IMG/VR virus record: IMGVR_UViG_3300020171_000019
Span: 12,138 to 76,137 of that record
Reading direction: 5' to 3' (one strand)
From: a virus
DNA: 64,000 nucleotides
Shown: positions 9,465-56,023 of the stretch, piece by piece
How positions within the stretch are numbered: position 1 is the stretch's first letter
How the letters are laid out: the number at the start of each line of letters is the position of its first letter
The notes under the pieces: generated by a model
The model's database searches: none
Told to the model about the DNA's origin: nothing
Seen by the model: only the letters and a program-made list of their open reading frames with translations
Made by a program: the position numbers and the translations under genes

Positions 9465-9685
9465 TACAAACACTCTTGATAGGGATGGCGATGCAGGCTG
9501 TTATTACTGGTGTGTTGTCAGAAATGCAGGTTATTCGACTGTCCGCAGGCCAACAGTTCTGCGTCGCGGGAGTGCTTGTTGTGTTTTGGGTCGGCATTGA
9601 AGTGGAGGCATACTGGAGGAGAACATCATGCTCCCGATATAGGCGTAAATGCCTAAAGCAAGAGGCAAAAAGGGAAGGCAGATAA
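9461..9685 (+). CDS. small membrane protein
   Basis: Two hydrophobic segments; overlaps both neighbours. Confidence 0.45.
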   Translation: MIQTLLIGMAMQAVITGVLSEMQVIRLSAGQQFCVAGVLVVFWVGIEVEAYWRRTSCSRYRRKCLKQEAKREGR

Positions 9686-11776: not shown

Positions 11777-12007
11777 ATGCTTAATGCCACATGCCCGAAA
11801 TGTGATAACGACAAGACGATCAAGCAGTATAAGGCTGGCACGAGTGCAGGCAAGACTGGAATCCCGGAGTGCCTGGTATGGAGATGTATATCTTGCGGTT
11901 ATACATGGAGAACGCCTTGTGCCGATGCAACAAATGATGAGTCTGTGAATGTCACAGAGGTAGGGCCGATCCATCCACTCATGGAGGCCAGATTCGGTAC
12001 GGCATAG
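11777..12007 (+). CDS. zinc-ribbon protein
   Basis: CPKC...CISCGY. Confidence 0.6.
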   Translation: MLNATCPKCDNDKTIKQYKAGTSAGKTGIPECLVWRCISCGYTWRTPCADATNDESVNVTEVGPIHPLMEARFGTA

Positions 12008-12028
12008 TTGCGCGTGAGAGGAGGGCGC

Positions 12029-12229
12029 ATGGGGCCACTGAGGGAGATATACGACGTGGAAGCCGTAGCGCGGCATTTCGGAAAATCGCCCAAGACAATC
12101 TTGAGGATGATTTATGCGGGGCGCATAAATGCTGCGAAGGTCGGACGGTCTTGGTGTATCCATCGGGAAGTCATTGAGGAGATGGATCAGCGGATTCGAC
12201 ACGGTAATTTGGCGCATGCTGGACATTGA
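12029..12229 (+). CDS. excisionase-like HTH DNA-binding protein
   Basis: YDVEAVARHFGKSPKTILRMIYAGRINAAKVGRSWCI. Confidence 0.8.
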   Translation: MGPLREIYDVEAVARHFGKSPKTILRMIYAGRINAAKVGRSWCIHREVIEEMDQRIRHGNLAHAGH

Positions 12230-12262
12230 AGGACAGAACAGACAGGAATAACAAGAAAGGCC

Positions 12263-12291
12263 TTGACAAGCATATGACTATATAGTATATT
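12263..12291 (+). promoter_or_regulatory. sigma70-type promoter for capsid operon
   Basis: TTGACA-17 bp-TATATT. Confidence 0.7.
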
Positions 12292-12328
12292 CGCTCAGAA
12301 AGCAACAGTATCGCGGTAGGCAGCATAG

Positions 12329-12370
12329 GCACGCTTGGGGTTTTCCCCTCCCCAGGCGTGCTTTCTTTTT
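12329..12370 (+). terminator. intrinsic terminator-like hairpin in capsid-operon leader
   Basis: GCACGCTTGGGG...CCCCAGGCGTGC followed by TTTCTTTTT. Confidence 0.65.
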
Positions 12371-12387
12371 GGAAGGAGGAGAGGCTG

Positions 12388-13974
12388 ATGAGTATTGCCC
12401 GGTTGCGAGTAGCAACATCACTGAGTGAAGCAAAGTTCGACGATGAACAAAAGACGATCCTGGTGAGGGTCTTGTCTCCTGGTTGGAGCAAGAACGGGAA
12501 CTACTACTCCCCGACTGTGGCGGCGTCACTGGCCGAGAAGGTGAAGGAGTCTGCGAAATCATATATCGACCACAAGCAGAATCCAGAAACAAAAGCATTC
12601 GGTCGGTCACTTCGGGATTGGGCAGCGACGGTCGAGGACACGTTTGTTGAGTCTGGCGTGCCGTATGCCAAACTGCGAATGACTGAGAATCCGGAGAGTG
12701 CGTGGCTTTATGAAGAGGCTAAGAAGAATCCGGGAGAAGTAGGCATCTCTATTGACGCGCAGGCGAAGGTCACAGAAAACGGTGAGGCAGAAGGGCGTAA
12801 GGGGCGGGTTGTTGATGAGATCATGAGTGCGCGGTGCGATCTGGTTGCATCTCCCTCGGCAGGTGGACAGGTAATGCAGGTACTTCAGTCGATGGGCGAT
12901 GTCGAGGAGATGGATGGCGAGAAAAAGACCATGCCCATGTCGATGATGGACATCAAGACCATGCAGGATATGAACAAGAAGCGCAGAGAGGAAAATGACA
13001 AGGAATGGGACTTGATGGACTCATTCAAGACTGTCATGCGCAACATCCATAATCCTGAGAATGGAGCGAGTGACGAGGAAAAGGCCATTGCATTTGACAC
13101 GGCGCTTGAAGACCTCAAGAACGGACTGAGCCAGATCGATTGGAAAGCGGTGTTTGCCGATACTGATCACGTGATGGCGTCCTGCGGAGTAGATGTTGAA
13201 TTGCTCGGCTACGTGCTTACAGAGGCAGACCTCCCAGAGGCAGTTACGTCATGGTCTGTAATCACGGAGGCTTATACCTTCTCGGGTGACAGTTGGGCGA
13301 CAGTAGACAAGTCAGCCCTGGCACCAGAAGACCATCTGATTGTCGGAGATCCCGCAGTCAAGGGCACATGGCACCTGCCCTACAAGAAGGGGAACGTAGT
13401 CTACAAGGGTGCGCTGCGGGCAATCTCGACAATCCTGAAAACCGGGAAATTCAGAGGCAAGGCAATGACATTCACGATCCCGGATGACGTAAAGGTGAAA
13501 GTGGAAGGGCTGTTGAAGGCGGCCAAAATCGGCCAATATGCAGAGAGTGTGCCAGAAGTGGCGCCAATCACAAAGGAGGTAGATGTGACTGACGAAGAAA
13601 TCAAGCAGGCAATCGCTGAATCACTCAACCCGATTCTGGCGAAGCTGGAAGTCCTGGACGTGTCGCTGAAGGCTGTGGCTCCTGTTATCGACCGGCTGGA
13701 TGCGGCTGACAAGGCTGTGACCCATCGCGCCAAGATTACACAGGCAGCGGCAGAGGTTGGTCTTCCTGGGGCGTATCTGAGCGAGGTCTTCATGCAGGGG
13801 TTGATGAACCTGTCTGATGACACGACGATCAAGGAGGCACTGAACGACAGAAAGTCGCTGGTATTCCGCACGGCGGGACGGGCGGTGGATAGCGGAGTGA
13901 CGTATCCTGTGATTGAGATGCAGGAAGTGGCTGCTGCCAAGGATGCGGCTGGACGACTGTCGTTGTTCAACTAA
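12388..13974 (+). CDS. prohead protease/scaffold fusion
   Basis: SKNGNYY, YIDH, GISI, DLVASPSAGG protease motifs; helical C-terminus; precedes capsid genes. Confidence 0.8.
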   Translation: MSIARLRVATSLSEAKFDDEQKTILVRVLSPGWSKNGNYYSPTVAASLAEKVKESAKSYIDHKQNPETKAFGRSLRDWAATVEDTFVESGVPYAKLRMTENPESAWLYEEAKKNPGEVGISIDAQAKVTENGEAEGRKGRVVDEIMSARCDLVASPSAGGQVMQVLQSMGDVEEMDGEKKTMPMSMMDIKTMQDMNKKRREENDKEWDLMDSFKTVMRNIHNPENGASDEEKAIAFDTALEDLKNGLSQIDWKAVFADTDHVMASCGVDVELLGYVLTEADLPEAVTSWSVITEAYTFSGDSWATVDKSALAPEDHLIVGDPAVKGTWHLPYKKGNVVYKGALRAISTILKTGKFRGKAMTFTIPDDVKVKVEGLLKAAKIGQYAESVPEVAPITKEVDVTDEEIKQAIAESLNPILAKLEVLDVSLKAVAPVIDRLDAADKAVTHRAKITQAAAEVGLPGAYLSEVFMQGLMNLSDDTTIKEALNDRKSLVFRTAGRAVDSGVTYPVIEMQEVAAAKDAAGRLSLFN

Positions 13975-13998
13975 CGACAGAGGAAGGAGGGCGCAGAC

Positions 13999-14424
13999 GT
14001 GGCAGTCAATAGTGACATCAAGATCGTGAAATACAATCCGATGTACCTCATCTCCAATCCTATCGCCTCGGCGACGGTGGTTGGGGTGGGTGACTTGATC
14101 GCGATTGAGTCAGACCTTGCAACGGTGCTCAGTCAGGCCGATGATGATCAGTATTTCTCAGGGCCGTCACAGGATCACTCGGCATCCGGGGATATTCTGG
14201 ACATCACGACCTATGGCAAGTGCGTCGCCAGGGTGACGGTGGCCTCTGCGACCTACGGGATCGGAGATGATCTTGAGTGGCAGAGCGGGGCGAACGGCAC
14301 GGCTTGGGTGTTCGTAGCAGGGGCGACAAATCCTGTTGCGCAGAGTATGCAACAGCTTGACGCGACAGGTACGGGGCCGATTCTCGTATCATTCGACGTG
14401 CAGAAACTCGGCATCTTTACTTAG
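13999..14424 (+). CDS. capsid decoration/cement protein, paralog 1
   Basis: Between scaffold and MCP; about 75% identical to the next gene by manual alignment. Confidence 0.7.
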   Translation: MAVNSDIKIVKYNPMYLISNPIASATVVGVGDLIAIESDLATVLSQADDDQYFSGPSQDHSASGDILDITTYGKCVARVTVASATYGIGDDLEWQSGANGTAWVFVAGATNPVAQSMQQLDATGTGPILVSFDVQKLGIFT

Positions 14425-14447
14425 CAAAGGGGAAGGAGGGAAACTGA

Positions 14448-14876
14448 ATGGCATCATTGAATAGTGACATCAAGATCGTGAAGTATGATCCGATGTGGCT
14501 CCTGACTTGCCCCATTGCTTCGGCAACTACGGTAGGAGTAGGAGACCTGATTTCGCTGGAGTCTGATCTTGCGACCGTATACAGTCAGGACAGTGATGAT
14601 CAATACTTCATTGGGCCTGCGCAAGATGCGTCTCAGTCGGGCGAAACACTGGACATTTCGGCATACGGTAAGTGCGTAGCGAGGGTCACAGTCTCTTCAT
14701 CGACCTACGGGATCGGTGAGAAACTGGAATACGTGAGTGGTGGAAATGGCACGGCATGGATCTTCGAGGCTGGATCAACCAACACCATCGCCCAGAGCAT
14801 ACAGCAACTCGATGCTACCGGCACGGGGCCGATTCTTGTGGTCTTCGATGCTCAGAAATACGGCATCTTTACCTAA
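14448..14876 (+). CDS. capsid decoration/cement protein, paralog 2
   Basis: Tandem paralog of 13999-14424. Confidence 0.7.
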   Translation: MASLNSDIKIVKYDPMWLLTCPIASATTVGVGDLISLESDLATVYSQDSDDQYFIGPAQDASQSGETLDISAYGKCVARVTVSSSTYGIGEKLEYVSGGNGTAWIFEAGSTNTIAQSIQQLDATGTGPILVVFDAQKYGIFT

Positions 14877-14897
14877 ACACCCAGGAGGTGAGGGAAA

Positions 14898-16076
14898 ATG
14901 GAACTGATTGAATCGATCAGACAGCACGTAAGGTCACACGAGCTTGAGTGTGGCAGCAATAAGAAACTGGCCTGGAAGCATGCTGGGGCCGAGTTGCAGG
15001 AATGGTTCCTGAGTGGCAAGGTAGACGCCACCAAGTTCTCGTTGAAGGCAATCGCGGAGGCAACGATACCGGGATTCAGTGGAATGAAGAACTCCAGCGC
15101 CGAGGAACTCTCTGAGGCAATGGTAACGTCGGCATTCCCGAACATCACCGGTTCGCTGATTCACAGCCGGATCATCGCGGCCTATGACTACGAACTTGGG
15201 AGCCTCAAGGAACTGATCACAGAGGACACTGCAATCGACTATCCTGACTCCAGGATTGCCGGTTTCGGCGCAGGCGACGACCTCGACTTCATCGCCGAGG
15301 GAAAGCAGTACGAGGACACCATCCTGACCGAGAAGAACGTCCAGGTAAGAATTGGGAAGTTCGGCAAGATGATCGAGCTTACCAGGGAAATGGTGCTCTT
15401 CGACAAGACGAACCAAGCGGTAAGTCGTGCTCGTGCGATCGGCGAAAAGGCTGGGTCGCATCAAGCCAAGATGATAGTGCAGACAATAGAGATGCTTCCG
15501 CGGACTTGCTTCGGGGAAACCACATCGAACCTGCGCAACTTCGTCTACAACGGATCTGTAACCACAGTCGGTAACTTCTACAACACCGATCACTCTGCCG
15601 TTCTGGACGCACAAGTCAACAGCAACAAGATCACGACCGCCCTGACGACTGCCGGAATGAACGAGGCATATGCGTTGCTGGCGGCGATGGTTGACGAGCG
15701 CGGAACCAAGATTAGCATCAAGCCGATGCACATCCTCGTGCATCCGTCGAATGAGGCGATCCTGGATCAGTTGCTGCACTCTCAGAAACAGTATGACACT
15801 GCCCATGACGCCCTGAACCCTTACGGGCCGGGTGGGCTTCGTAGTGGACTGCGGCCTATAAGCTCAGTGTTCATCGCTGATGCCGACGACTGGTATTTGG
15901 GGCGGTTCGCAAATCAGGTCGAGTGGTGTTGGGGCTGGAAGCCTGAGACGTTGGCGCAGGGTGCCACATCCGACGCGGCATTCGAGCGTGACGTGGTCAA
16001 CCGGTTCCGGTTCGGCTACATGGGTGGATGTGCCCACACGGACTACCGTTACATCATCAACGCCAACGTGGCATAA
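14898..16076 (+). CDS. major capsid protein (Mu gpT-like, HK97 fold)
   Basis: KFGKMIELTREMVLFD, KPMHILVHP, DDWYL, DYRYI; 392 aa. Confidence 0.88.
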   Translation: MELIESIRQHVRSHELECGSNKKLAWKHAGAELQEWFLSGKVDATKFSLKAIAEATIPGFSGMKNSSAEELSEAMVTSAFPNITGSLIHSRIIAAYDYELGSLKELITEDTAIDYPDSRIAGFGAGDDLDFIAEGKQYEDTILTEKNVQVRIGKFGKMIELTREMVLFDKTNQAVSRARAIGEKAGSHQAKMIVQTIEMLPRTCFGETTSNLRNFVYNGSVTTVGNFYNTDHSAVLDAQVNSNKITTALTTAGMNEAYALLAAMVDERGTKISIKPMHILVHPSNEAILDQLLHSQKQYDTAHDALNPYGPGGLRSGLRPISSVFIADADDWYLGRFANQVEWCWGWKPETLAQGATSDAAFERDVVNRFRFGYMGGCAHTDYRYIINANVA

Positions 16077-16086
16077 GGAGGCCGAT

Positions 16087-16722
16087 ATGAGGACGAGCAT
16101 CAAATGGCTCACGATCGGTATCCTTCTGGCGTCGGCGGTGACGGTCTGGGCGGCAGCAACGCACATCGGGCGGATCGTCTTTACGGAGGTTCCGGAAGTT
16201 ACCGGTAGTAACGCAGAGACGATTAGCAATACCACCAATGGCTCTTGGACGCTGGACAAGTTGATTATCACGAGTTCACCGGAGATTACAGGAGCCAATG
16301 GGGAGTATTGGACTAACACCACAAACAACATCTGGAGTTCAGATGGGGCCGTCAATACTACGGCACAGTTCACCGTTGATAGTTCGCCCATTGTCAGAAC
16401 CCTGACCATCCCGATAGACAGTCTTGGCATGACGGACGTGGACATTCCGGGGGTTATCACGCTGGAGAGTGACATCACCATATTACGAGCACAGGTGACC
16501 TCGATTGATGTGACAGCCGGAAATGCCTGCTACGTTGTGTTCCATTCTGGGGCGATACGGGATTCTGTCTCAGTTGCTCAGGGTGCACAGACAGGCGCGA
16601 ACACTACAGACTATAGCCTATCGGCAGCGGCTGTGTGCAGTCTCCTTGTAAGCGACGGATCGGCAGGCACTGGCGGGACTGGTGCCATGGTGGTGATTCA
16701 GTATACCGACAAGAACGACTAA
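16087..16722 (+). CDS. beta-rich protein with Sec signal peptide (decoration-like)
   Basis: MRTSIKWLTIGILLASAVTVWA; AAGGAGG RBS immediately after the MCP stop. Confidence 0.7.
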   Translation: MRTSIKWLTIGILLASAVTVWAAATHIGRIVFTEVPEVTGSNAETISNTTNGSWTLDKLIITSSPEITGANGEYWTNTTNNIWSSDGAVNTTAQFTVDSSPIVRTLTIPIDSLGMTDVDIPGVITLESDITILRAQVTSIDVTAGNACYVVFHSGAIRDSVSVAQGAQTGANTTDYSLSAAAVCSLLVSDGSAGTGGTGAMVVIQYTDKND

Positions 16723-16778
16723 CCGAAGGGAGGTGTCCTAACAGGCGCCTCCCGTTCGCCTTACATTGGAGTTGATCA

Positions 16779-18320
16779 GTGGCGGTTGTCTACGGAGATG
16801 TATCGGCATCGCGGACGCTGGAAGTAACGCCTTCTGATGTCCGAGTCAAAACATTTGATGCGCCGGCAGCGAGTGCTCGGGTGTCGGGCGATGTCACTGT
16901 AACGTATACGCTCGAATCTGACCTGACGGTTACGGCTTCCATTGGCGTGCAGTGGAGCACAAACGGCTCTTCATGGGCAACTGCCACGATGGGCACCGGC
17001 GGCGATGGCACGAGCGGACTTGCAACATCCGGGGCTGGCACGTCACATACATACATCTGGGATAGCGTAACTGACGTTGGGTCTGCTCTGGAGGATGAGG
17101 TATACCTGCGCATCCGGGCCAGCGATGGAGCTGCTTGGAGCGGCTATACGACGTCTTCTGCTTTTACGGTTGACAATCTCCCTACTGCATCCTCGTTGAC
17201 GACTCCTGCCGATAGCTGGTTTGCCAAGGACACAACTCCGATCTTTGCATTTACCATTCCGACCGATCCAGGCGGGGATTACCTGCATTTCAAGTGTGAT
17301 GTCAGGAATACCGCAGGAGCGATTACTCTGAGTAGGGAGTCAAACACAACTCCGACTGGTTGGGAGTATTGGGACGACAACAGTTCTGATTACACAGGCA
17401 AGCGATACCGAGCCTACTATGTGCAGAATTTGACGGTCTCTTCATTGACTGGCACGACCCACACATTCGCTTCGTTGACCGATAGCGTGAGAGGGACGAC
17501 ATTGCCGGCGTCGATCACGGGCGGGCGAGTAATGCTGATGAACAAGGCCGACCGTCTGTGTTACGTGACGAGTGTCACGAGTTCAGGGTTTACGATTGCG
17601 ATGAGCGCAGCGGGTGGAGCGGATTCGGGTCTTGTGGATGTGCTTGTCTTCTACGATGACGGCGGCGGATGGGATGAGTATTGGATCTCAGGTTATGTAG
17701 TGTCGTCGGATACAGGGTTTGCGGTGAACTACTCCAACCTGACAGATGATCATTCTGTAACCGCACTTCCCGCAACAATAACCAACGCAAAAATAGTCAC
17801 CATGAGCGAAACAGATCGACAGGTTGTCATTACGTCGATTACAAATACGGGATTCACGATTCGGCGGGCGGCGGGAGGGGCAGATACGGCACAGGTAACC
17901 TTGATGATCCTGAAGACTCCGGCAGATGCTTACTGGATCACGGACTACACGGCGTCTTCGTATAGCGGGACGAGTGTTGCGTGGAGTGCTCTGACTGATG
18001 CACTTGGCGGGGCTCTGCCGACGCACATTCCTTGGCCGTTTGTGTTGGCGTGCTCGAAGAACGGGACAATGGCCTATGTGTCAGCCGCGGACGCCTACAA
18101 CATGACCATCGCAAAAAGCGTAGCAGGAGAAGACACGGATGCAACGGTTGACTTGATGATCTTCGCGCCTAACGTCACTACAGGGTTCTGGGTGCCAATG
18201 ACGACTACTGGCGTGCCGGATGCGTATGAGGGGGTTGCGGCGCGGTTTACGGTTCAGGCGGCAGATGCGTTGGCAGAAGCGACCTATACATGGACAATCA
18301 CGGCGGGAAATCTGGCATAA
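16779..18320 (+). CDS. Ig/FN3-like structural protein with three tandem H-lectin-like repeats
   Basis: VYLRIRASDG...WS FN3-like motif; three ~80 aa repeats Y[YW]..LTD..LP..GFTI..AGG.D..V. Confidence 0.7.
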   Translation: MAVVYGDVSASRTLEVTPSDVRVKTFDAPAASARVSGDVTVTYTLESDLTVTASIGVQWSTNGSSWATATMGTGGDGTSGLATSGAGTSHTYIWDSVTDVGSALEDEVYLRIRASDGAAWSGYTTSSAFTVDNLPTASSLTTPADSWFAKDTTPIFAFTIPTDPGGDYLHFKCDVRNTAGAITLSRESNTTPTGWEYWDDNSSDYTGKRYRAYYVQNLTVSSLTGTTHTFASLTDSVRGTTLPASITGGRVMLMNKADRLCYVTSVTSSGFTIAMSAAGGADSGLVDVLVFYDDGGGWDEYWISGYVVSSDTGFAVNYSNLTDDHSVTALPATITNAKIVTMSETDRQVVITSITNTGFTIRRAAGGADTAQVTLMILKTPADAYWITDYTASSYSGTSVAWSALTDALGGALPTHIPWPFVLACSKNGTMAYVSAADAYNMTIAKSVAGEDTDATVDLMIFAPNVTTGFWVPMTTTGVPDAYEGVAARFTVQAADALAEATYTWTITAGNLA

Positions 18321-18334
18321 GGAAGGGGCGATCA

Positions 18335-18835
18335 ATGAAAACGATCTTGAGTATTTTTGTAGTGGTCGGGCTTCTGTCTGGGGGTATAGCACAAGCGGAG
18401 TTGATCGAGGGATATGCGGCCAATCAGGTTGTTTTGTGGGATTCAACGGACATATTCACAGACTCTACAGACGTCACGCTATCCACTATCGTAATGATGG
18501 AGCAAAGCACACGACTGTCGGTCTACTATCAGGCGGTTTCGGCAAGCGGGACACCGAATATCAAGCTCGATATGCTCCAGTCCTACGAGAATACTGCATC
18601 GAAGTTTGCGACACCGGACACAACTACGACTCTGCGGTATAGTGGTGGTTGGTATGAGATTGCGAATATCCCGGCCATTGCAGACAGCTTGAAGGACGAA
18701 GTTGTCCACATCAAAGAGATTGCGCCGATTCCGATGAGATACTTGAGATTGAGGGTCACTGGGCGGGCTACAAATGCGCCTGATACACGAGTGAGAGTTG
18801 TTCTATTCGCACAACCACCCGTCCGCGTTCAATAG
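18335..18835 (+). CDS. beta-sandwich protein with Sec signal peptide
   Basis: MKTILSIFVVVGLLSGGIAQA; PMRYLRLRVTG. Confidence 0.7.
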   Translation: MKTILSIFVVVGLLSGGIAQAELIEGYAANQVVLWDSTDIFTDSTDVTLSTIVMMEQSTRLSVYYQAVSASGTPNIKLDMLQSYENTASKFATPDTTTTLRYSGGWYEIANIPAIADSLKDEVVHIKEIAPIPMRYLRLRVTGRATNAPDTRVRVVLFAQPPVRVQ

Positions 18836-18847
18836 AGGAGATAGGCA

Positions 18848-21301
18848 ATGAAAAGACTGAGTTTGATTCTGGTTGGGCTGATTGCCCTTGTGCTTCCTGC
18901 GGTAGGGAGTGCATCAAAGTGGACAGTTGCGGACACGTTGCGCGTGGACAAGATCATTGCCAAAGATTCAAGCGCGGTACAGATGGGCGCAATGAGCACT
19001 GCGTTGAGCGGTAAGATCTTGGCTGATTCGGTTCTGGGGCGGACGGATACGAACACAGGCATTGTGTTGGCCGGTAGCGATACGATCAAGATGCAGACAT
19101 CCGGAACGGTGCGCCTGAAGGTGAATCCTGACGGGACCGTGACGTTCATTAGCAACATCGGGGCTGAGAATGAGCCTACTCCATCATTCCCTATTTCATT
19201 CTTGAGCGGCACAGGGGACAAGATCGCACTGTGGGGCCAGTCCGGCAACACTTATGGTTTTGGTATTCAGAGTAACCTGCTACAGATTCACACGGACGTA
19301 ACTGGTGCGGACATTGCATTCGGGTACGGCTCCTCGGCGGCACTGACCGAGACGGCTCGGTTGACAGGCGCAGGACAGCTACAGATACCCACTATTGACG
19401 TTGCTGGAGGGATTCTACTCGGCGGAGATGTCAACCTCTATCGCGCTTCCGCTAATCGCCTGAAGACGGATGATGCTCTCACCGTAAACGATACTCTTAG
19501 CGTTACGGGTAAGAGTATCCTGACTGGGATTGTAAGCGTTGGAAACGGAACCGCTGCTCTTCCAGCGATAGCCGGTATCAGCGATCCGAATACCGGAATG
19601 AGGTTTCCAACAGGCGATACGCTTGCGTTCTCGACAGGCGGGAGCGAGCAGGTGCGGATTGATCCTAGTGGCAACGTCGGCTTCGGAACCACAACTTTCG
19701 GCACGAATGCGGCGAAAGTGATCGGTCTTAGCGCAGGGGTTTCTCCTACCACGAGTCTTGCGGATATGTCCCAGATATGGGCAGTAGACTACAACGGAGC
19801 GGGGTCTAATCGTCCGTATGTCAGAACCGAGGAAGGCAACTCCTCGCCAATCGCTGCACTCTCCGAAACGGCAATCTACTACGGCATCACGTGGAACGAG
19901 TCTGCGGATTCCTACACGAGAACCGGCAGAACTGCAGGACACAAGGTCGCTGCTACGCTTCCTGCTGGTATGCTGCCGATTCAAGAGTCTATGCGTGGCT
20001 GTCTTCTCTCCGACGCTGGAGCGGTGAACTACTACCTATCGCCTACAAACTGGGCATATAAGGAAGACGGTGCAACCGCCTCAGTTCTCACCGGCGCAGG
20101 TGGCCAGGTGATGGTGGAGATACCGAAGTTCTGGTACCGCTACGGTTACGCAAGCACAACTCATACGTGGGAAGTATCCCCCGTTCCGATGTCGGGTTTC
20201 GCGCCTCATCCCGCGTTCTACAAAGACGGTGCTTGGGTGGACAACAGATACATCGGAGCATATGAGGGAACGCTCTACAATGTAGGGAGCGCTTTCTACG
20301 AAAACAAGTTCGCACCGGTTGCTTCGCATTCTGCAACCTTCGATGTTGATCCCGGAACGATTACTGCCGGCTCAGGAACGCCTTATTCGTGGTTGGCGGC
20401 TGGCGATACGATCGTTGTTACGGGAGCTGGAGGCAGTAACGGGACATACGCTATTAGCACGGTGACGGGAACCGTTATTACGTGTACTGGAGTCATAGCC
20501 GGTGTTGATTCTGTGCAGGCAACAACGGTGATTTCGTCTCTTGCGGCGGATTGGACTGCAACCACAGGCGATAAGCTGAGCTCAGTGTCAGGATTGTTCG
20601 CAGTCTCGAATGGCACGCGAGCGCAGTTCCGCGAGATCGCCCTGAATAGGGGAGCTGGCTGGAGGCAGATAGATTACGATCTGGTTGCGGCGATTCAGCT
20701 CTTGTGTCTGACTGAGTATGCATCGTTCTATACACAGTCCGTGATTGGCGCAGGCATCTCGAATGTCGCCGACTGGAGTGCTTACAATGCTTACTATCCC
20801 ATTGCCAAAACCGGCACAGGTAATGCGATCGGGAATGCGAGCGGTAACACGGCAGGTTCAACAACTGCTGCGGCAGAGGTGAGTGATTACGTCAAGTATA
20901 GAGGAATTGAACAGTGGTACGGACACCTGTGGAAATTTGTAGATGGGATCAACATCAACAACAACATCCCATATCGGTGCAACACGGAGACTAACTTTGC
21001 CGATGACACGGCAAGTAACTACACCGCGATGACGAATGCCCTCGGCGCTGCAGTGACACTGCACAACGCCAATGGGTATGTGGCTACGCTGCAAAAGATG
21101 AAATGGGGATTTCTGCCTGCGAGCGTAGGCGCAGACGGAGCAACGAAGATCACCGATTACTACTATCAGAATAGCGGCTGGCGCGTCGCCTTGTTCGGTG
21201 GCGCTTCTGAGGATGGCGCGAATGACGGTGGCTTCTATTGGTATCTGAATAATGCCTCATCCGATGCCAATCCGTATATTTGCGCCCGCGTTGGATTTTA
21301 G
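18848..21301 (+). CDS. DGR target: fibre/adhesin-like protein with signal peptide and C-terminal C-type-lectin-fold (FGE-like) domain
   Basis: Signal MKRLSLILVGLIALVLPAVGSA; fibre motifs DVNLYR, LAFSTGGSEQVRIDPSGNVG; QVMVEIPKF, YIGAYEG, YRGIEQWYGHLWKFVDG; VR at C-terminus. Confidence 0.9.
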   Translation: MKRLSLILVGLIALVLPAVGSASKWTVADTLRVDKIIAKDSSAVQMGAMSTALSGKILADSVLGRTDTNTGIVLAGSDTIKMQTSGTVRLKVNPDGTVTFISNIGAENEPTPSFPISFLSGTGDKIALWGQSGNTYGFGIQSNLLQIHTDVTGADIAFGYGSSAALTETARLTGAGQLQIPTIDVAGGILLGGDVNLYRASANRLKTDDALTVNDTLSVTGKSILTGIVSVGNGTAALPAIAGISDPNTGMRFPTGDTLAFSTGGSEQVRIDPSGNVGFGTTTFGTNAAKVIGLSAGVSPTTSLADMSQIWAVDYNGAGSNRPYVRTEEGNSSPIAALSETAIYYGITWNESADSYTRTGRTAGHKVAATLPAGMLPIQESMRGCLLSDAGAVNYYLSPTNWAYKEDGATASVLTGAGGQVMVEIPKFWYRYGYASTTHTWEVSPVPMSGFAPHPAFYKDGAWVDNRYIGAYEGTLYNVGSAFYENKFAPVASHSATFDVDPGTITAGSGTPYSWLAAGDTIVVTGAGGSNGTYAISTVTGTVITCTGVIAGVDSVQATTVISSLAADWTATTGDKLSSVSGLFAVSNGTRAQFREIALNRGAGWRQIDYDLVAAIQLLCLTEYASFYTQSVIGAGISNVADWSAYNAYYPIAKTGTGNAIGNASGNTAGSTTAAAEVSDYVKYRGIEQWYGHLWKFVDGININNNIPYRCNTETNFADDTASNYTAMTNALGAAVTLHNANGYVATLQKMKWGFLPASVGADGATKITDYYYQNSGWRVALFGGASEDGANDGGFYWYLNNASSDANPYICARVGF
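21178..21294 (+). repeat. DGR variable repeat (VR)
   Basis: 117 bp ungapped match to TR; 16 of 17 mismatches fall at TR adenines. Confidence 0.97.
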
Positions 21302-21352
21302 GTATTATATGAAAGGAGGTTATGAAATAAACAGGATGTACACTCTGGTGCA

Positions 21353-21469
21353 CTGGCACGTCGCCTTATTCAGTGGCAATTCTAATAATGGCACGAATGA
21401 CAGTGACTTCTATTGGAATCTGAATAATGCCTCATCCAATGCCAATCCGAATATTTGCACCCACGTAGG
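21353..21469 (+). ncRNA. DGR template repeat (TR)
   Basis: A-rich copy of VR with 10 in-frame AAT codons; lies between target and RT. Confidence 0.95.
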
Positions 21470-21597
21470 TTGAGCCAACTTGAAAACGATTTTGTGAGTG
21501 TACAATCCTTGCCTCTTGGCAGAAGAAACAGCATCTCCACTAAGGGTTGGTAGGGTGCAGAAATGCATATCGAACGCCCTGGAGATGGCTTAAACCA

Positions 21598-22632
21598 ATG
21601 AAGCGACATGGCAATCTGTACAAGGCAATCTGCACGACAGAGAACATCGCAGAAGCCCACAGGAACGCACGGAAGGGAAAGACGCACTACGGTGAAGTGC
21701 AAAAGGTGGACAAAAATCCCGAGATGTATTTTCCCAAGATCCAGAGAATGTTGATGCACAAAACGTTTCGCAACTCCAGATACTCAGTATTCAAGTTGAG
21801 AGATGCAGGCAAAGAAAGAATTATCCACAAACTCCCGTACTTCCCAGACAGGATCGTTCATCACGCCATAATGCAAGTAGTGGAACCAATCTGGAAGCGC
21901 ACGCTTATCAATGATACATTCTCGTCAATCAGGGGCAGGGGAATCCATAAGGGAATGAAGCGGATAACAGGGGCGATGCAAGACAAAGAGGGCACGAGAT
22001 ATTGCCTGAAGCTTGACATAAGCAAATACTACCCATCCATCGACCATGATGTCTTGAAACAGATCATTCGCAGAAAAATAAAGGACCCTGATCTTCTCTG
22101 GTTACTTGATGAAATTATAGACTCGGCTCCAGGTGTCCCGATAGGAAATTACCTGAGTCAGTATTTTGCCAACTTGTATCTGAACGGCTTTGATCACTGG
22201 GCGAAGGAAACAATGAGAATCAAGTGGTATTTCAGGTATTGTGACGACATTGTAATCTTCGGTGCCACGAAAGAAGGATTACACGTGCTCCTATCTAAAA
22301 TCCGGGACTACTTGTGTCAGGTTCTACGGTTGAGCGTCAAAGGCAACTACCAGGTGTTTCCCGTTGAGGTGCGCGGCGTAGACTTTCTTGGGTATGTATT
22401 CCGGCACAGCCATACCCTCGTGCGACGACGGATTAGGGACAACTGCATCAAGGCATTGAAAGGAAATATCCGGGACATCCACAAGCAACTACCGAGTTAC
22501 TTCGGGTGGTTCGGTCACTGCAACAGTCACAATCTTCGGCGATCCCTTGTTGGGGATGACCTACGGGAACGAATGAACAGATATTGCCAGATGAGCGCAT
22601 TGAGTAATCCACTTAGAGGAGGTTTGATATGA
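21598..22632 (+). CDS. DGR reverse transcriptase
   Basis: MKRHGNLY, DRIVHHA, LKLDISKYYPSI, GVPIGNYLSQ (DGR-type SQ), YFRYCDD, DFLGY. Confidence 0.96.
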   Translation: MKRHGNLYKAICTTENIAEAHRNARKGKTHYGEVQKVDKNPEMYFPKIQRMLMHKTFRNSRYSVFKLRDAGKERIIHKLPYFPDRIVHHAIMQVVEPIWKRTLINDTFSSIRGRGIHKGMKRITGAMQDKEGTRYCLKLDISKYYPSIDHDVLKQIIRRKIKDPDLLWLLDEIIDSAPGVPIGNYLSQYFANLYLNGFDHWAKETMRIKWYFRYCDDIVIFGATKEGLHVLLSKIRDYLCQVLRLSVKGNYQVFPVEVRGVDFLGYVFRHSHTLVRRRIRDNCIKALKGNIRDIHKQLPSYFGWFGHCNSHNLRRSLVGDDLRERMNRYCQMSALSNPLRGGLI

Positions 22633-23012
22633 AATCAAGCTCCGATCGTTTTCCAGATGTGGTGGTGCTGTCAAACGAGCGTACCCAAATTCGCTACAAC
22701 GTCTCACCTGTTACCAAGCAGGACATGGACGGCATGATCAGGACGGTCTATGAGTTCGATTATGTAGAAATTTCCGGTGATGTAACCAAGGAGAAGATCG
22801 TGGAGGCAATCCTTCTTGTAGAGAATCCAGAGCCTGCAATGGAGATCGTGCAGGTCGTTGAGGAGAAAGCTATTGTCAATGTTGATGCGGTGCGAGTCAT
22901 GGCAGTAGAGGCAGTAGCAGAAGCGGCAGAACGGTTGAGAACTGCGCCGGACAAGGAAGACGTTGTGATTGAGACAAACCCAATGGAGGTCATATGGACT
23001 GGCAGCAAGTAA
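22629..23012 (+). CDS. hypothetical protein translationally coupled to RT
   Basis: ATGA overlap with RT stop; QIRYNV...YEFDYVEI. Confidence 0.7.
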   Translation: MKSSSDRFPDVVVLSNERTQIRYNVSPVTKQDMDGMIRTVYEFDYVEISGDVTKEKIVEAILLVENPEPAMEIVQVVEEKAIVNVDAVRVMAVEAVAEAAERLRTAPDKEDVVIETNPMEVIWTGSK

Positions 23013-23275
23013 TACCGATCATTGTATGGATCGCAACCCAGATCTTGAAGGTGGCTGTGCCGGCGCTTGAACGGACAGGACTTGGCAAGAGCGTTCTTCC
23101 AATTATAGCGGTTGCGGTGGGAGTAGTAGCGGGCGCAGTGGTTGACCAGCAGATCCTTGACGTGGCATTCCCGTCATTGATGCAAGGATTGACCAATGCT
23201 GGCTACGGGTTGATGGCTACGGGCATTCACGAAGTCGGGACTTCGGTTGGCAAGATGTTTGGGAAGCGAGTATGA
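22994..23275 (+). CDS. holin-like membrane protein
   Basis: TQILK...VLPIIAVAVGVVAG...GLMATGIHE; 2-3 hydrophobic helices. Confidence 0.65.
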   Translation: MDWQQVIPIIVWIATQILKVAVPALERTGLGKSVLPIIAVAVGVVAGAVVDQQILDVAFPSLMQGLTNAGYGLMATGIHEVGTSVGKMFGKRV

Positions 23276-23288
23276 GGGAGGTGCGCTG

Positions 23289-23618
23289 ATGCCAGAAGAA
23301 GTTGAAGAATACCAGGAGCAACAGAACGAGGAGAGGTATGTGACCTGGAAGGGGTTTATAGTCGCAATAGTGCCCTTGCTTGTGATTCTCATGGGGGCAC
23401 AGATGTGGATAGTGAGAGTCCATGCGGAGCTTCCTTACCACGTTGGAGTAATAGCAATTGCATACGAGAAATCCAAGGGTGAAGTTCTGGAAGCTCGGCT
23501 GTCCAGGATGGAGGTTGATGTTAAGGAGATAAAAACCCAGATCGAACAGAACAATCAGGAGATCCAAGATCTGATTAAGGATCTGGGTAGAGAACTGCGA
23601 CAAGGACGCAGACTATGA
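23289..23618 (+). CDS. single-TM coiled-coil protein
   Basis: FIVAIVPLLVILMG followed by heptads. Confidence 0.6.
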   Translation: MPEEVEEYQEQQNEERYVTWKGFIVAIVPLLVILMGAQMWIVRVHAELPYHVGVIAIAYEKSKGEVLEARLSRMEVDVKEIKTQIEQNNQEIQDLIKDLGRELRQGRRL

Positions 23619-23923
23619 CCGTAGAGAGTATAGGCGCAGGCATAGCAGGTGTTGGTGTCTTGGGTGGAGTGTTGCGGATTCTGTCGGTTGCATGGCGATG
23701 GCGACGGGCCTTGGGTGCAATAGCCATGCTGATTGAAGAATATAAGGCCGCAAAAGCCCCTGACAGTGATGGCGGCTCAAAGATTACGGGTTTTGAATCA
23801 GAATACTTGATCCAGAGAATCACCGAGATTGTGACTGAGGGAATAAGGGCTAAGACTCCACCTCCCCAGGATGTAGTTGAGAACAGTCCTATCCCTCTTG
23901 AGTCCGACAAGGAGACCCAGTAA
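23615..23923 (+). CDS. membrane-anchored hypothetical protein
   Basis: N-terminal hydrophobic helix; coupled start and stop. Confidence 0.55.
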   Translation: MTVESIGAGIAGVGVLGGVLRILSVAWRWRRALGAIAMLIEEYKAAKAPDSDGGSKITGFESEYLIQRITEIVTEGIRAKTPPPQDVVENSPIPLESDKETQ

Positions 23924-24684
23924 TGTCCTTGGCTCTGATGTGCACGGAAAGAGATGTCATAGACCGGATACCACAGTTGTATGAGTCCGGGGCGTCGAAT
24001 GAATATCCCGTGCGCGGTCTTGCGCAGATTCGGCGCACGATCTATCAGACAGACGGTCAACTCAGGTCGATGCTTCGGGTGTTGTATGGTGACAGCCTGA
24101 CTATCACATCCTGGGCGGATGTGCCAGAGCCAAAGGATGTCAATACGGGGGGTGGTGGACTGACCCAGGCAACCGCAAGTGCAGCGGCTATCACGGAATT
24201 GTGGACGGTGACATATACATCGACAAGCGCATTTAGTGTGGCAGGGGCGCTGTCTGGGGCACAAGGAACCGGCACAAAGAGCACGGCATTTACCTCGACA
24301 AATGGTTATCTGTCTATTGCTGCGGCGGATTGGTCAGGAACGCCAGCGAACGCAGATATTTTCTTCATTCGAGTTTTTGCAGTAGAGTCAACGCTTGTCG
24401 ATATTTCGGCATGTCTGGCGTCGATCAGCATTCTGAGGTCTGTATATGGTTCAGAGATACCGAACAGTTCAGACCTGGCCGAGCAATATGAGGCATATCT
24501 TTGGGGAGCAGAGAAGAAGCCCGGCATTCTCAGGCTCCTTCTTGATCCTACGACCAGTGGCACGATACTACAGAAGGGCTTATCAGTCCGGAACCTCGAT
24601 CCTATCCAGGTGGACTGGGAGATCAGCGAGGAAGGGGAAGATGTGACGGACTACGCAACCAAGGAATGGGACGCCGTTGAGTAG
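23923..24684 (+). CDS. head-tail adaptor-like protein with beta-rich insertion
   Basis: CTERDV...TDGQLRSML...LVDISACLA; position before the morphogenesis gene. Confidence 0.6.
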   Translation: MSLALMCTERDVIDRIPQLYESGASNEYPVRGLAQIRRTIYQTDGQLRSMLRVLYGDSLTITSWADVPEPKDVNTGGGGLTQATASAAAITELWTVTYTSTSAFSVAGALSGAQGTGTKSTAFTSTNGYLSIAAADWSGTPANADIFFIRVFAVESTLVDISACLASISILRSVYGSEIPNSSDLAEQYEAYLWGAEKKPGILRLLLDPTTSGTILQKGLSVRNLDPIQVDWEISEEGEDVTDYATKEWDAVE

Positions 24685-25144
24685 CACAATTACGATGAAA
24701 TGCGACACCAAAGAGGTGCAGACTGCGCTTGCTGAATTGTTCAGGAAGCAAGCCACTCTCAAGCCGTTCTTTGAAATGATATGGCCTATTCTTCACAGGT
24801 CGATAATGGCGAATTTCCGAGCAGGCGGTAGGCCGAATAGATGGCCGTATTTGTCTGATGCAACTATCAATGCAAGGAAGAAGCGAAAGACATGGCGGGA
24901 AGGCGTTGGGAGTGACCAGCCGATACTGCAGGAGTATGGGAAGCTGCGGGAGTCCGTAGGTTCTGTTCTGTCCATAACAGACACACGACTTGAGTATGGC
25001 ACCAATGATGTGCGTGCGGGGGCGCTGCAATTTGGATGGAAGAAGAAACACCTGCCTGCGCGACCGTTCATCATGTTCCAAGACGAAGACATCGACCGAG
25101 TTGCCGCAATGGCAGCAGGCTTTGCTTTCGGGATCAAAAAATAA
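24677..25144 (+). CDS. virion morphogenesis / tail completion protein (Mu gpG-like)
   Basis: NFRAGGRP..W..LS..T, GKLRES, GTN...LQFG, LPARPFI. Confidence 0.85.
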   Translation: MSSTITMKCDTKEVQTALAELFRKQATLKPFFEMIWPILHRSIMANFRAGGRPNRWPYLSDATINARKKRKTWREGVGSDQPILQEYGKLRESVGSVLSITDTRLEYGTNDVRAGALQFGWKKKHLPARPFIMFQDEDIDRVAAMAAGFAFGIKK

Positions 25145-25280
25145 TCTCCTCTGATTCGAGTTCTGGGTGAGGTTCTGGCCTGACCCCTCGATAGTAGTGC
25201 TTCTCATACCGGTTCATGGCCGGTGTCCCCAAACCCTCACAATCTGTGCGGAAACACATAAATTGGCCTATTCAACCAAC

Positions 25281-26189
25281 ATGAAAACGCTGTTGACGGC
25301 GATAAAAACCCGTTTGCAAACATACAGCCAAACCGGAGAAACATTGGCCTCTATCAAAACATGGAAGCGTGGCATACTCCCACCATTGCCTGTGTTCCCG
25401 GCCCTTGTGCTACTGCCGGTGCAGGAACTCTTTCACAGGGTGATGTCTGGAGGCACATACTGGGTGGATCGGATTGTGGAGATCAGGGTGTACCAGAAGT
25501 CATACCAGGCAACCAAACACTCCGTGGCCGATGCGATGGACTTGATGAATGCGCTAAAGGACATCATTCGGACAGAATACCAATGGGTGCATGGTAGTGT
25601 TGAACAATGCGCAGATACGCTGTTTGGAGATGAGGACATAGGCGACTGGGAGCCATTCAGGAATGCCTTTGTGCAGCGGAGCTCGATGAGAATTACATGT
25701 CGGTCACAGGAGGCATATCCGACCCAGACGGTCACAACGACCTTATCGGATGTAGCATTCAGGCCGTTCATTGACAACGTGTATGCGACCCTGCAGGGAT
25801 ACCAGGCCACAACATTGTCGGCAGTCAAGACGATGGAGGAGCATACAATTGTGCCGATTCCTGCAACACGGTTTCCAGCGATTGCGGTAAACGGCGAGAC
25901 TGAACAGCTTGTGCATGAACCGACATCCGTGGACACGGCCAACAGAAACATGACCATCCGGGTATGGACGCACTTGCTGGACAAAGAAAGCCTGCTCGAT
26001 GCGAATCTTGACATCGTAGAAGCGGTGAAGGATATTCTCCAGATCAACTACGCATTTGGGGGACGGTGCCGCAATTCGGAGATCCAGGGAATTCGATATG
26101 GGCAAGCGGGGGAGGAAAAGCAGATGTTGTATGAATCCGTCCTAAGCCTGTCGTGCGAGGGAGTTGACGTTTTACCAGCGGTTGTCTGA
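25281..26189 (+). CDS. tail terminator-like protein with internally duplicated domain
   Basis: Two similar ~150 aa halves (FPALV/FPAIA, IRVY/IRVW, LKDII/VKDIL). Confidence 0.6.
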   Translation: MKTLLTAIKTRLQTYSQTGETLASIKTWKRGILPPLPVFPALVLLPVQELFHRVMSGGTYWVDRIVEIRVYQKSYQATKHSVADAMDLMNALKDIIRTEYQWVHGSVEQCADTLFGDEDIGDWEPFRNAFVQRSSMRITCRSQEAYPTQTVTTTLSDVAFRPFIDNVYATLQGYQATTLSAVKTMEEHTIVPIPATRFPAIAVNGETEQLVHEPTSVDTANRNMTIRVWTHLLDKESLLDANLDIVEAVKDILQINYAFGGRCRNSEIQGIRYGQAGEEKQMLYESVLSLSCEGVDVLPAVV

Positions 26190-26213
26190 GTCACAACCAC
26201 AAAGGAGGTTGAA

Positions 26214-27248
26214 ATGGCACTACGCACACCTTGGCAGGACAGATACTTCCTGTCAGAACAAAAGACCAGCATCTCGACGGCTGCCGGCTTTACGACTGGC
26301 AACATCGGGATACTGAGCAACGTCTTTGCACTGGCAACGAACAACCACCCACACATCAATCCAGGGCAGCAGATTGAAGACGTGCGGAAGGCAACAGGAA
26401 TAGCGCAGCGGTCGCTTCTATCGGCATCATCGGCGGGAGAGTATCAGCAGACACGGAAGGAACCGACCGTATCTCTGGAGTTCGACGCCAATGCTTTCAA
26501 CTTGGCACCGGTGTTATGGTCGCTGTTTCAGACCGGAGCATCGGAAGGAGCATCGACTGTATATCCCAAGACGTTCATTGCCTACACCGATCCGTCGTGT
26601 GAAGTGTGGCTGTCTATCCTTCGACAGATGACACCTGGGACTGCAGATTCGCACAGACTGGACGGAGCGATCTGTAAGACATTGACCCTGGAAGGCAAGG
26701 GGCAGGGGGCGCTCAAGGCAACTGCGGAATTCGTCGGATATGATGTGTTGACAAATGTAACCTGCACAGCGTCAACCGACCCGCTTCTCACATGGGCAAA
26801 CAAGGCTCCTCTTCTGTGGCGTAATGCAGGAATGTCCCTCGGAACGTATGTCGCCAACACTCCTATCGGAATTGACGGCTTCCGTGTTGTCATTTCCAAC
26901 AACGCTACTGGCGTCTACTACGATGACCACAGACCCCAGAAATGGGTACTCGGTGACCTGACTATCACGGGTGAAATCGCTGTGCCGTGGGCTTCCACGA
27001 CTGTCGGCGGGAATACCGAGTTTGACAAATTCGTGGCTGGCACTCCTTCACGGCTTCGTGTTATGTGGGGTAGTTACGCTGGCACCGCAGATGCGGAACT
27101 GGCAATTGAAGTCAACATGCGCTACACAGGCGCAACGGTCGAGGGTGACGTGGAAACAGTCACTACGCTCCCGTTCGAGCACGCCTACGACGGCACAACT
27201 TCAATCACGATAGTGGCAGGTGACTCAACCCTACGGACAATCACATAG
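26214..27248 (+). CDS. major tail (tube) protein
   Basis: 344 aa beta-rich protein upstream of the chaperone and tape measure; no sheath gene seen. Confidence 0.75.
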   Translation: MALRTPWQDRYFLSEQKTSISTAAGFTTGNIGILSNVFALATNNHPHINPGQQIEDVRKATGIAQRSLLSASSAGEYQQTRKEPTVSLEFDANAFNLAPVLWSLFQTGASEGASTVYPKTFIAYTDPSCEVWLSILRQMTPGTADSHRLDGAICKTLTLEGKGQGALKATAEFVGYDVLTNVTCTASTDPLLTWANKAPLLWRNAGMSLGTYVANTPIGIDGFRVVISNNATGVYYDDHRPQKWVLGDLTITGEIAVPWASTTVGGNTEFDKFVAGTPSRLRVMWGSYAGTADAELAIEVNMRYTGATVEGDVETVTTLPFEHAYDGTTSITIVAGDSTLRTIT

Positions 27249-46657: not shown

Positions 46658-47173
46658 ATGCTTGCAACGAGAGATCGACACGCTGGGATAGGTTACGCGG
46701 CAGTCTTGACTCTGTTCTGGGTCTTAGTTGGATGCGGGCAAGACGAAACGTTCGACTATGCACCTGAACACAGACTGGTAAGCGTTAGGATGAACGCAAC
46801 AGACATCCGAGACCGGGTTGTCAAGTACTACAACTTCGAGTTTGGCTTATCTTCTGATGAGCAACCGCAGGTAAGCGCCTACGACATTTCGTTCTCCGCC
46901 TCATTCCCCACAGGGGACACACTGAAAGTGCGACAATCCGGAGCAACATCACTACATCAATCAAGCGCAACAACGCTGTCAGGCATCAAGGATATTCCAC
47001 CTGCAATTACCCATGCAGAAATCCTTCGCGGCCAAGAAGCGTTTTTTGTTGTACACACTACATGGAAACGGATAGTTAAGTGCCGGATTCGCCATGCCAA
47101 TCTGCAAGACAAACCGATTGTCCTGGAATATGAACTCTATCGCGATCCAACGCCTGACCTGACCCTCAACTGA
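46658..47173 (+). CDS. lipoprotein
   Basis: Hydrophobic segment ending LVGC. Confidence 0.6.
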   Translation: MLATRDRHAGIGYAAVLTLFWVLVGCGQDETFDYAPEHRLVSVRMNATDIRDRVVKYYNFEFGLSSDEQPQVSAYDISFSASFPTGDTLKVRQSGATSLHQSSATTLSGIKDIPPAITHAEILRGQEAFFVVHTTWKRIVKCRIRHANLQDKPIVLEYELYRDPTPDLTLN

Positions 47174-54904: not shown

Positions 54905-54906
54905 CG

Positions 54907-56016: not shown

Positions 56017-56023
56017 GGGGGTT

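Follow-up and report, generated by a model that had tools for sequence, protein, structure and literature searches.

Results

Predicted signal peptides on three proteins encoded behind the capsid gene

The DNA examined here is a 64,000-nt window (positions 12,138 to 76,137) of a linear phage genome that comes from groundwater metagenomes and has been seen in three studies (IMG/VR virus record IMGVR_UViG_3300020171_000019; 76,137 bp, CheckV completeness 81%). Almost all genes of the window lie on the + strand, and coordinates refer to the window unless preceded by a locus name. Our subject is a block of four genes, P1 to P4, which starts 10 nt past the stop codon of the gene for the major capsid protein (MCP). 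Behind the block lie the parts of a diversity-generating retroelement (DGR), namely a template repeat (TR), a gene for a reverse transcriptase (RT) and a gene for a small protein, Y, followed by the genes for three small membrane proteins, tm1 to tm3 (22994-23923). The features are listed in Table 1.

A preliminary description of this DNA had proposed that P1, P3 and P4 (starts at 16087, 18335 and 18848) begin with signal peptides, and the proposal is borne out by start sites, layout and conservation of the predicted leaders. The ATG of each gene lies 10-14 nt past the preceding stop codon, with a Shine-Dalgarno (SD) motif within the gap (AGGAGG for P1, AAGGAAGGGG for P3 and GAGGAG for P4). 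No earlier in-frame start exists upstream of any of the three, and true starts downstream of the hydrophobic segments, which the same description had considered, are at odds with these SD-backed ATGs. The N-terminal sequences are MRTSIKWLTIGILLASAVTVWA for P1, MKTILSIFVVVGLLSGGIAQA for P3 and MKRLSLILVGLIALVLPAVGSA for P4, with the predicted cuts directly before AATH, ELIEG and SKWTV, respectively. In these leaders of 21-22 aa the n-region is basic (+1 or +2), the h-region is uncharged and 12-15 residues long, and the P/G-containing c-region has small residues at −3/−1. The hallmarks of substrates of the Sec system and signal peptidase I (SPase I), which are a basic n-region, an uncharged hydrophobic h-region of about 7-15 residues and small residues at −3/−1, are present in all three, and a lipobox cysteine is absent from all three. 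In P1 and P3 the leader is the sole strongly hydrophobic 19-mer; P4 contains one extra, marginal segment at residues 535-553 with a mean hydropathy of 1.63 against a threshold of 1.6.

Conservation of the leaders was examined in homologues. The leader is kept in all three homologues of P1, in all three of P3 and in four of the five closest homologues of P4 inspected, and the predicted cut in these proteins directly precedes the conserved mature sequence. The three P1 homologues all read (V/A)WA↓(A/G)(A/T)T at the cut, which is marked by the arrow. The leader sequences of the P3 homologues diverge, yet all are hydrophobic with small residues at −3/−1, and they end immediately before the conserved (E/Q/D)(L/V)(I/V)(E/D)G(Y/F)A. 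For P4, the relative P0002, which is 84% identical, retains PAVGSA↓SKWTV; P0004, P0006 and P0010 have leaders ahead of quite different N-terminal parts and P0007 is leaderless. We consider it very probable that P1, P3 and P4 are exported, that is, translocated by Sec and cleaved by SPase I as predicted.

P4 is the variable protein of a diversity-generating retroelement

The most informative fact about the module, absent from the preliminary description, is that P4 is the variable protein of a DGR. The variable repeat (VR) at the end of P4 differs from TR at 17 of 117 positions, 16 of which are adenines in TR; TR contains 33 adenines. The RT gene and Y follow. Avd was not detected at this locus by Pfam, PHROGs or PDB profile searches; Y occupies the place in the locus where Avd is expected, and its profile has no PDB relative.

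P4 is modular. Its leader is followed by about 20 lineage-specific residues, tail-fibre shaft modules that extend to about residue 335 and a tip or core at residues ~340-817. The tail-fibre PHROGs were matched at residues 214-335, and the shaft module has relatives in 1947 fibre proteins. The tip of about 480 aa matches phrog_5302, labelled "tail protein" in PHROGs, at residues 327-815 (E 1e-88). P4 has 199 homologues, and a sequence search of PDB with P4 gave no match. Among the relatives of the tip are proteins of Methanosarcina virus MetMV (49% identity) and "tail proteins" of crAss-like phages as well as g27 of Yersinia phage fEV-1, which is annotated as a tail fibre and adjoins an RT. The tip relatives read from MetMV, fEV-1 and crAss-like phages are all leaderless.

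Table 1 Features of the locus between the capsid gene and the head-completion genes. The arrow marks the predicted cleavage site.
Feature	Coordinates	Strand	Description
MCP	14898-16076	+	Pfam Phage_capsid_4, E 1.3e-20
P1, 211 aa	16087-16722	+	Leader 16087-16152 (22 codons), cut VWA↓AA
RNA hairpin	16724-16758	+	Stable fold after the P1 stop, in the sole intergenic gap (56 nt) of the block
P2, 513 aa	16779-18320	+	Leaderless; Ig-like N-terminal part, three internal repeats of ~85 aa
P3, 166 aa	18335-18835	+	Leader 18335-18397 (21 codons), cut AQA↓E; position X of the X-T-Y module
P4, 817 aa	18848-21301	+	DGR variable protein; leader 18848-18913, cut GSA↓SK; lineage-specific N-terminus SKWTVADTLRVDKIIAKDSS
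VR	21178-21294	+	117-nt repeat in the final 40 codons of P4; its end lies 7 nt ahead of the stop
TR	21353-21469	+	117-nt repeat
RT	21547-22632	+	DGR reverse transcriptase; Pfam RVT_1 E 2e-15; phrog_1423 E 1.5e-121
Y, 127 aa	22629-23012	+	Leaderless here; phrog_11557, conserved accessory protein of the DGR/target family
tm1, 93 aa	22994-23275	+	Two predicted membrane helices; no Pfam/PHROG family; conserved after the fibre in L142
tm2, 109 aa	23289-23618	+	One membrane helix and a charged helical tail; no family
tm3, 102 aa	23615-23923	+	One N-terminal membrane helix

Leaders co-vary across target, partner and Y proteins

The pattern of leaders was explored in 80 IMG/VR loci and 58 loci from metagenome-assembled genomes (MAGs) that encode related tip domains. 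In the modules compared, the target protein (T) is preceded by X, a small beta-sandwich protein, and followed by Y. A stricter version of our leader heuristic was used for all counts, since a looser version produced false positives. Leaders were found on 17 of 96 non-redundant tip proteins, about one sixth of the tip family in 139 fetched loci. These are scattered over the tip-domain tree, where at least 11 changes of leader state (gain or loss) are forced by well-supported branches and 15 occur on the best tree. The neighbours follow the target: within three gene positions, 22 of 61 neighbours of leader-bearing targets were themselves leader-bearing, compared with 9 of 285 at leaderless targets (odds ratio 17), in loci that are phylogenetically non-independent for this count as for those of Y below.

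The Y family comprises proteins of about 110 aa that are encoded just after the target or after RT in 47 loci (for example L009:11461-11790, L065:13044-13523 and L140:5495-5833). Y and target have the same leader state in 46 of the 47: both are leaderless in 39 and both leader-bearing in seven, Y alone has a leader in none and the target alone in one (Fisher p about 1e-7 with non-independent loci). An independent-pairs test of target against Y gave three pairs that changed the same way, none that changed in opposite ways and one unchanged, which is too few for significance. When the Y sequences are aligned, the leader stands out as a clean extension of 22 residues at the N-terminus, ahead of the conserved start. 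Since the leader of Y follows the compartment of the target, and since a protein that is leader-bearing in other loci is unlike a cytoplasmic retrohoming factor, the pattern suggests that Y serves the target protein rather than retrohoming or cDNA synthesis.

X proteins vary in the same manner. Those of the MetMV type are leaderless in MetMV, L019 and L081 and leader-bearing in L064, L068 and L008; in a second X family, L065 has a leader and L017 and L051 have none. In MetMV (L140, 1-5833), X of 141 aa, a tip protein of 522 aa and Y of 112 aa lie behind a protein of about 3000 aa and all are leaderless. L063, L067 and L069 have the MetMV layout, but are leader-bearing. The most direct comparison is offered by L007 and L008, which come from one metagenome. 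Their tip genes share 88% nt identity, and the homology begins just behind the leader of L008. In L007 the partner domain, encoded upstream, forms the C-terminal end of a fibre-like protein of 944 aa without a leader; in L008 it is a free 180-aa leader-bearing protein, so the leader-bearing version appears to have lost the part that would tie it to a particle. This two-part cassette of partner and tip (L007:2031-6351 and L008:9073-11476) shows 75-88% nt identity in otherwise unrelated phages. The loci are those of genuine phages. The genes of L008 are ordered as TerL, portal, scaffold, MCP, Ad3 adaptor, three small leader-bearing proteins, the leader-bearing target and Hc3, which places the module in the neck module of this podovirus. 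In L064 and L035 it stands just after their own, unrelated capsid genes, and in L065 after the tape measure.

We conclude from these comparisons that the leader is likely a functional address that has been gained or lost by whole modules; that it sets the compartment is suggested because joint gain and loss by target and partners would otherwise be hard to explain. The export proposed in the preliminary description thus gains support from leaders that are canonical, conserved and, in the wider family, apparently gained and lost jointly by the target and its partners. Alternatively, the leaders may be non-functional and the proteins ordinary virion parts assembled in the cytoplasm, with N-terminal helices that oligomerise, tether the protein to the membrane or are simply tolerated. 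Such helices would fit the position of the genes within the structural operon, leaderless Y and P2, a lack of any cysteine signature of periplasmic folding and the rule-based nature of the heuristic behind the leader calls. They would not account for the complete n-h-c layout and its small −3/−1 residues or for h-regions of 12-15 residues, which are too short for a stable span. Moreover, the cut coincides with the start of conservation in the P3 homologues and in the Y family, and the coordinated gain and loss in partner genes would be left without a reason. We regard non-functional leaders as quite unlikely.

Probable origin of the P4 tip

Relatives of P1, P2, P3 and MCP are absent from the tip-domain loci, jackhmmer searches with P1-P3 against all open reading frames (ORFs) of these loci were empty, and scans of viral contigs with P1, MCP and the P4 N-terminus retrieved no lineage relatives. 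When metagenomes were scanned with the P3 alignment, two contigs were retrieved, both from Hainich groundwater. On the first, L141, a homologue of P2 is directly followed by one of P3. On the second, L142, the P3 homologue is followed by a 545-aa fibre protein with the leader MRKVWVGWLLGVLLCWPVLGHA and a predicted cut before SKWTVADTLRVDKIVAKDSS. The leader and the SKWTVADTLRVDKI N-terminus together with the shaft are common to this fibre and P4. The C-terminus of the L142 fibre is a Peptidase_S74 intramolecular chaperone (Pfam E 3.6e-14), and a DGR is absent from L142; the fibre gene is followed there by an ORF of 89 aa and a homologue of tm1.

The conserved unit of the window's lineage so appears to be P2, P3, an exported fibre and tm1. 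A leaderless module was probably the source of the DGR tip, which would have been grafted onto this older exported fibre along with TR, RT and Y. Among tips, the closest to that of P4 is the leaderless P0007 of L001. In place of the P4 leader it has an N-terminus that we take to resemble that of an ordinary tail fibre. A graft from a leaderless module would explain why Y in the window is leaderless.

P1, P2, P3 and the small membrane proteins

No family was found for P1, P2 or P3 in Pfam or PHROGs, and a PDB sequence search with P2 was also without match. The mature part of P1 is beta-rich with a repeated PE(V/I)TG.N.E..SN.TNG.W motif; its AlphaFold2 (AF2) model, built on a shallow alignment, is unusable (pLDDT 40). 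The AF2 model of P3, likewise from a shallow alignment, is an 11-strand beta-sandwich of low confidence (pLDDT 57). It has unspecific matches to generic jelly-roll and carbohydrate-binding module (CBM) folds (VIA Z about 8; BFVD TM below 0.5). The preliminary description had regarded the leader-bearing proteins as beta-rich decoration or fibre proteins. The fibre likeness holds for P4, and a sandwich is predicted for P3 at low confidence; the P1 model contributes nothing. The term decoration module is unproven, as P1-P3 have no homology to a known decoration family in Pfam or PHROGs and P2 is leaderless; the one point in favour of such a role is the adjacency to MCP.

We considered a glycosylation-sequon signature in these proteins and dropped it, as the strong SD motifs speak against a host from the Bacteroidota. 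D-[ST]-[AILVMT] sequons number four in P3 (0.8 expected) and eight in P4 (3.6 expected), and NxS/T sequons number nine in P2 (3.6 expected), signals that are weak after correction for 66 tests. All four sites in P3 are conserved in its homologues.

The three small membrane proteins match no holin family. A holin-like role of tm1 is a guess.

Genome context, expression signals and host

The head genes upstream of the block are ordered as portal (6865), an intein-containing MuF-like gene (9649), a gene for a scaffold-like protein (12358), two paralogues of 141 and 142 aa and MCP. Head-completion and tail genes restart at 23923, with Phage_tail_S at 24677 and the tail tube at 26214. The intein interrupts the MuF-like head morphogenesis gene (9649-11760) and is identified by Hint_2 and Intein_splicing at residues 308-441 (CITGDT...VHNC). 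The tandem paralogues just 5' of MCP (13999-14424 and 14448-14876) have no family match and are candidates for conventional leaderless decoration proteins.

The hairpin after P1 lies in a 67-nt stretch with a folding energy of −26.4 kcal/mol (z −3.0 against shuffles), and no U-tract stands behind it. It is possibly an attenuator or a 3'-end stabiliser of an MCP-P1 transcript that would separate MCP-P1 from P2-P4, which suggests that MCP and P1 are produced in greater amounts than P2-P4. A consensus scan of positions 12000-26500 gave no promoter or terminator signal above chance, and its best promoter-like site is at 12263, ahead of the scaffold gene; the promoter type of the host may differ from the consensus.

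We infer that the host is a diderm bacterium because the phage encodes a Pal-like OmpA-family lipoprotein with an LSGC lipobox (39530-40057, within the tail-tip genes), a second lipoprotein of 171 aa (LVGC; 46658-47173) and an RlpA-like DPBB protein that bears a signal peptide (60290-60682), and because its SD motifs are strong. The module could be a moron cassette for lysogenic conversion, expressed from the prophage and giving the lysogen a DGR-diversified surface adhesin like the cellular targets of DGRs. Signal peptides or anchors are typical of cellular DGR targets (PMC8144416), prophages encode 70% of the pilin-type targets known from Bacteroides DGRs (bioRxiv 10.1101/2024.11.15.621889), and there is other envelope cargo in this phage in the form of the Pal-like lipoprotein. 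The evidence from the genome itself points the other way: no integrase or resolvase was found in the 81%-complete record, promoter and terminator signals of the cassette are not above chance, and its genes are coupled to the late genes at distances of 10-14 nt. Lysogenic conversion therefore seems very unlikely. Since an integrase was not found, a cell-bound function would be limited to the late period of infection.

Other genes of the phage include, in its non-structural part, one for a MoxR-type AAA+ ATPase (bpMoxR) with the gene of a VWA-domain protein behind it (54742-57439), and those for glycosyltransferases, e.g. at 49373-50329. Upstream of the window in the phage genome (L139), a PG_binding_1 protein (L139:1956-2753) is the best endolysin candidate and a TnpB/IS605 OrfB-like gene lies at L139:3113-4351 (OrfB_IS605 and a Cas12f1-like TNB domain).

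Discussion

We propose that the host Sec system translocates P1, P3 and P4 and that SPase I removes their leaders. P4 would be a fibre resembling the mosaic adhesive trimer (MAT) fibres of Bdellovibrio bacteriovorus, composed of a leader, a short lineage-specific N-terminus and exchangeable tail-fibre shaft modules, and it would trimerise. Its original distal end may have been an S74-chaperoned tip that was swapped for a DGR-diversified tip arriving together with Y, TR and RT. P4 would share its compartment of maturation with small beta-sandwich partners, namely P3 and perhaps P1. Together, P1, P2, P3, the fibre and tm1 to tm3 would form an accessory cassette, located between the capsid and head-completion genes and co-transcribed late. 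The exported fibre complex would be a hypervariable adhesin or receptor binder that acts at the infected cell's envelope or beyond it, and would not be built into the particle in the cytoplasm.

An envelope role is suggested because the leader replaces a different, leaderless N-terminal part of the relatives and because the partner that bears a leader in L008 no longer has its carrier protein. It is further suggested because the tail-tip module offers other candidates for receptor binding and because MAT fibres and prophage-encoded pilin-type DGR targets are precedents. Separate large tail-tip proteins of 1231 and 711 aa are encoded by the phage and could be the receptor binders of the virion. 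The Pal-like lipoprotein and the leader-bearing RlpA-like protein, as other envelope proteins encoded by the phage, count in the same direction. The reading as a whole, a Sec-exported fibre complex with its envelope fate included, is put forward tentatively, with slightly less than even confidence.

A different fate after export would lead back to the virion. The preliminary description had named both fates, display on the infected cell and addition to particles at lysis. P1, P3 and P4 may mature in the periplasm and bind finished capsids at lysis as head-fibre or decoration parts, the membrane perhaps being breached by tm1 to tm3, which are encoded behind them. Virion assembly would then have an extracytoplasmic arm, in which Sec-exported head fibres and decoration-like proteins are captured by DNA-filled particles at lysis and in which the DGR continually rewrites the fibre tip. 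Several observations are in keeping with such a route. The module lies directly after the capsid gene here and in L064 and L035, and in the neck module in L008; the coupling to MCP is tight, and the hairpin suggests MCP-like expression of P1. The apparent lack of an integrase and the annotation of leaderless homologues in named phages as tail proteins also fit, as does the synteny of tm1 with the fibre in L142, since neighbouring membrane proteins could time the encounter. In model phages, fibres and decoration proteins can join finished particles in lysates. On the other side, no capsid- or tail-docking domain is detectable after the leaders, the partner domain in L008 is without the long carrier present in L007, P2 and Y would remain cytoplasmic, and tm1 to tm3 have no match among holin families. 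We know of no precedent for this in tailed phages, and none was found in the literature searched. Capture of exported proteins by particles at lysis, including the continual rewriting of the fibre tip in that setting, is possible but in our view doubtful.

The envelope reading of the exported fibre complex has to be held against a number of observations. The leader calls come from our own rule-based heuristic and from conservation, not from SignalP or experiment, and a leader is lacking from P2, although its gene stands mid-block. The sole mismatch between Y and its target in the whole family is the window itself, where Y is leaderless and the target leader-bearing; the proposed graft would leave Y and its presumed client in different compartments, a mismatch if Y has to meet the tip. 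Cysteine is not enriched in leader-bearing tips relative to the leaderless ones (0.86 versus 1.21 Cys per 100 aa), and the leaderless tip relatives in named phages carry the annotation of tail proteins. P1-P4 are tightly coupled to the capsid gene, promoter and terminator signals in the region scanned are not above chance, and, with no integrase found in the 81%-complete record, a cell-bound role would have the late infection period only. Finally, SPase I leaders alone reach only the periplasm of a diderm, and a route across the outer membrane is not visible.

Because the habit of having leaders recurs in unrelated phages, some phage fibre modules probably mature outside the cytoplasm, the compartment in which virions are built. 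The case described here is a near-complete phage genome with a canonical leader on a DGR target, which contrasts with the sorting of such targets in DGR surveys into leaderless "viral" virion fibres and signal-bearing "cellular" surface proteins. If export is true, phages either coat the envelope of the dying cell with hypervariable binders or assemble their virions partly outside the cytoplasm. Either outcome would alter how the "tail fibre" genes of metagenomic phages are to be read.

The preliminary description had suggested an undescribed system, which is too strong because both MAT fibres (PMC10769870) and exported prophage DGR targets (bioRxiv 10.1101/2024.11.15.621889) have been published. 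A description of Sec-exported tail-fibre-like phage proteins was not found in the literature searched. The sequence comparisons made here add the module-wide co-variation of leaders and the probable swap of an S74 tip for a DGR tip.

The MAT fibres of B. bacteriovorus have a signal peptide, a conserved N-terminal part, a tail-fibre-type shaft and exchangeable tips (Caulton et al. 2024, PMC10769870). A domain of ~130 aa that is conserved and rich in beta-structure follows their signal peptide, and the fibres comprise a subset with an S74 chaperone-protease and a non-S74 subfamily (PMC10769870). P4 is likened to them by domain architecture, as it likewise has a signal peptide on tail-fibre shaft modules. 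The S74 end is shared by the L142 fibre; P4 instead ends in a DGR tip, and MATs without S74 exist. MAT genes are chromosomal genes of a predator whose products are displayed on its surface, whereas P4 belongs to a phage's late head operon, has a DGR tip and is accompanied by small partners that are predicted to be exported.

With the DGRs of Bordetella phage BPP-1 (mtd-avd-TR-brt) and of other phages whose targets are tail fibres, the element described here shares a VR at the C-terminus of a fibre, adenine-specific differences between TR and VR and an adjacent RT. Avd is present in BPP-1, whereas here Avd was not detected at the locus, Y (phrog_11557) is found instead and the target lies in the head module. 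Exported proteins among structural genes are also known from lambda, where the envelope morons lom and bor in late operons encode exported proteins; each is driven by a promoter of its own and has no relation to parts of the virion. The cassette described here consists of fibre parts, and no separate signals stand above chance.

Phage DGR targets have been stated in a survey to lack signal peptides (PMC6199706), and signal-bearing targets have been treated as cellular (PMC8144416). The pilin-type DGR targets of Bacteroides, most of them from prophages as mentioned above, are exported as lipoproteins (bioRxiv 10.1101/2024.11.15.621889). In Legionella LdtA, Treponema TvpA and the tip adhesins of the Bacteroides type V pilus, DGR-diversified binders leave the cytoplasm by means of a signal peptide (PMC8144416; bioRxiv 10.1101/2024.11.15.621889), as is predicted for P4. 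Those proteins are lipoproteins or pilins with lipoboxes and known routes to the surface; P4 and its partners differ from them in their cysteine-free SPase I leaders, in the tail-fibre mosaic that bears the diversified tip and in their coupling to a capsid gene.

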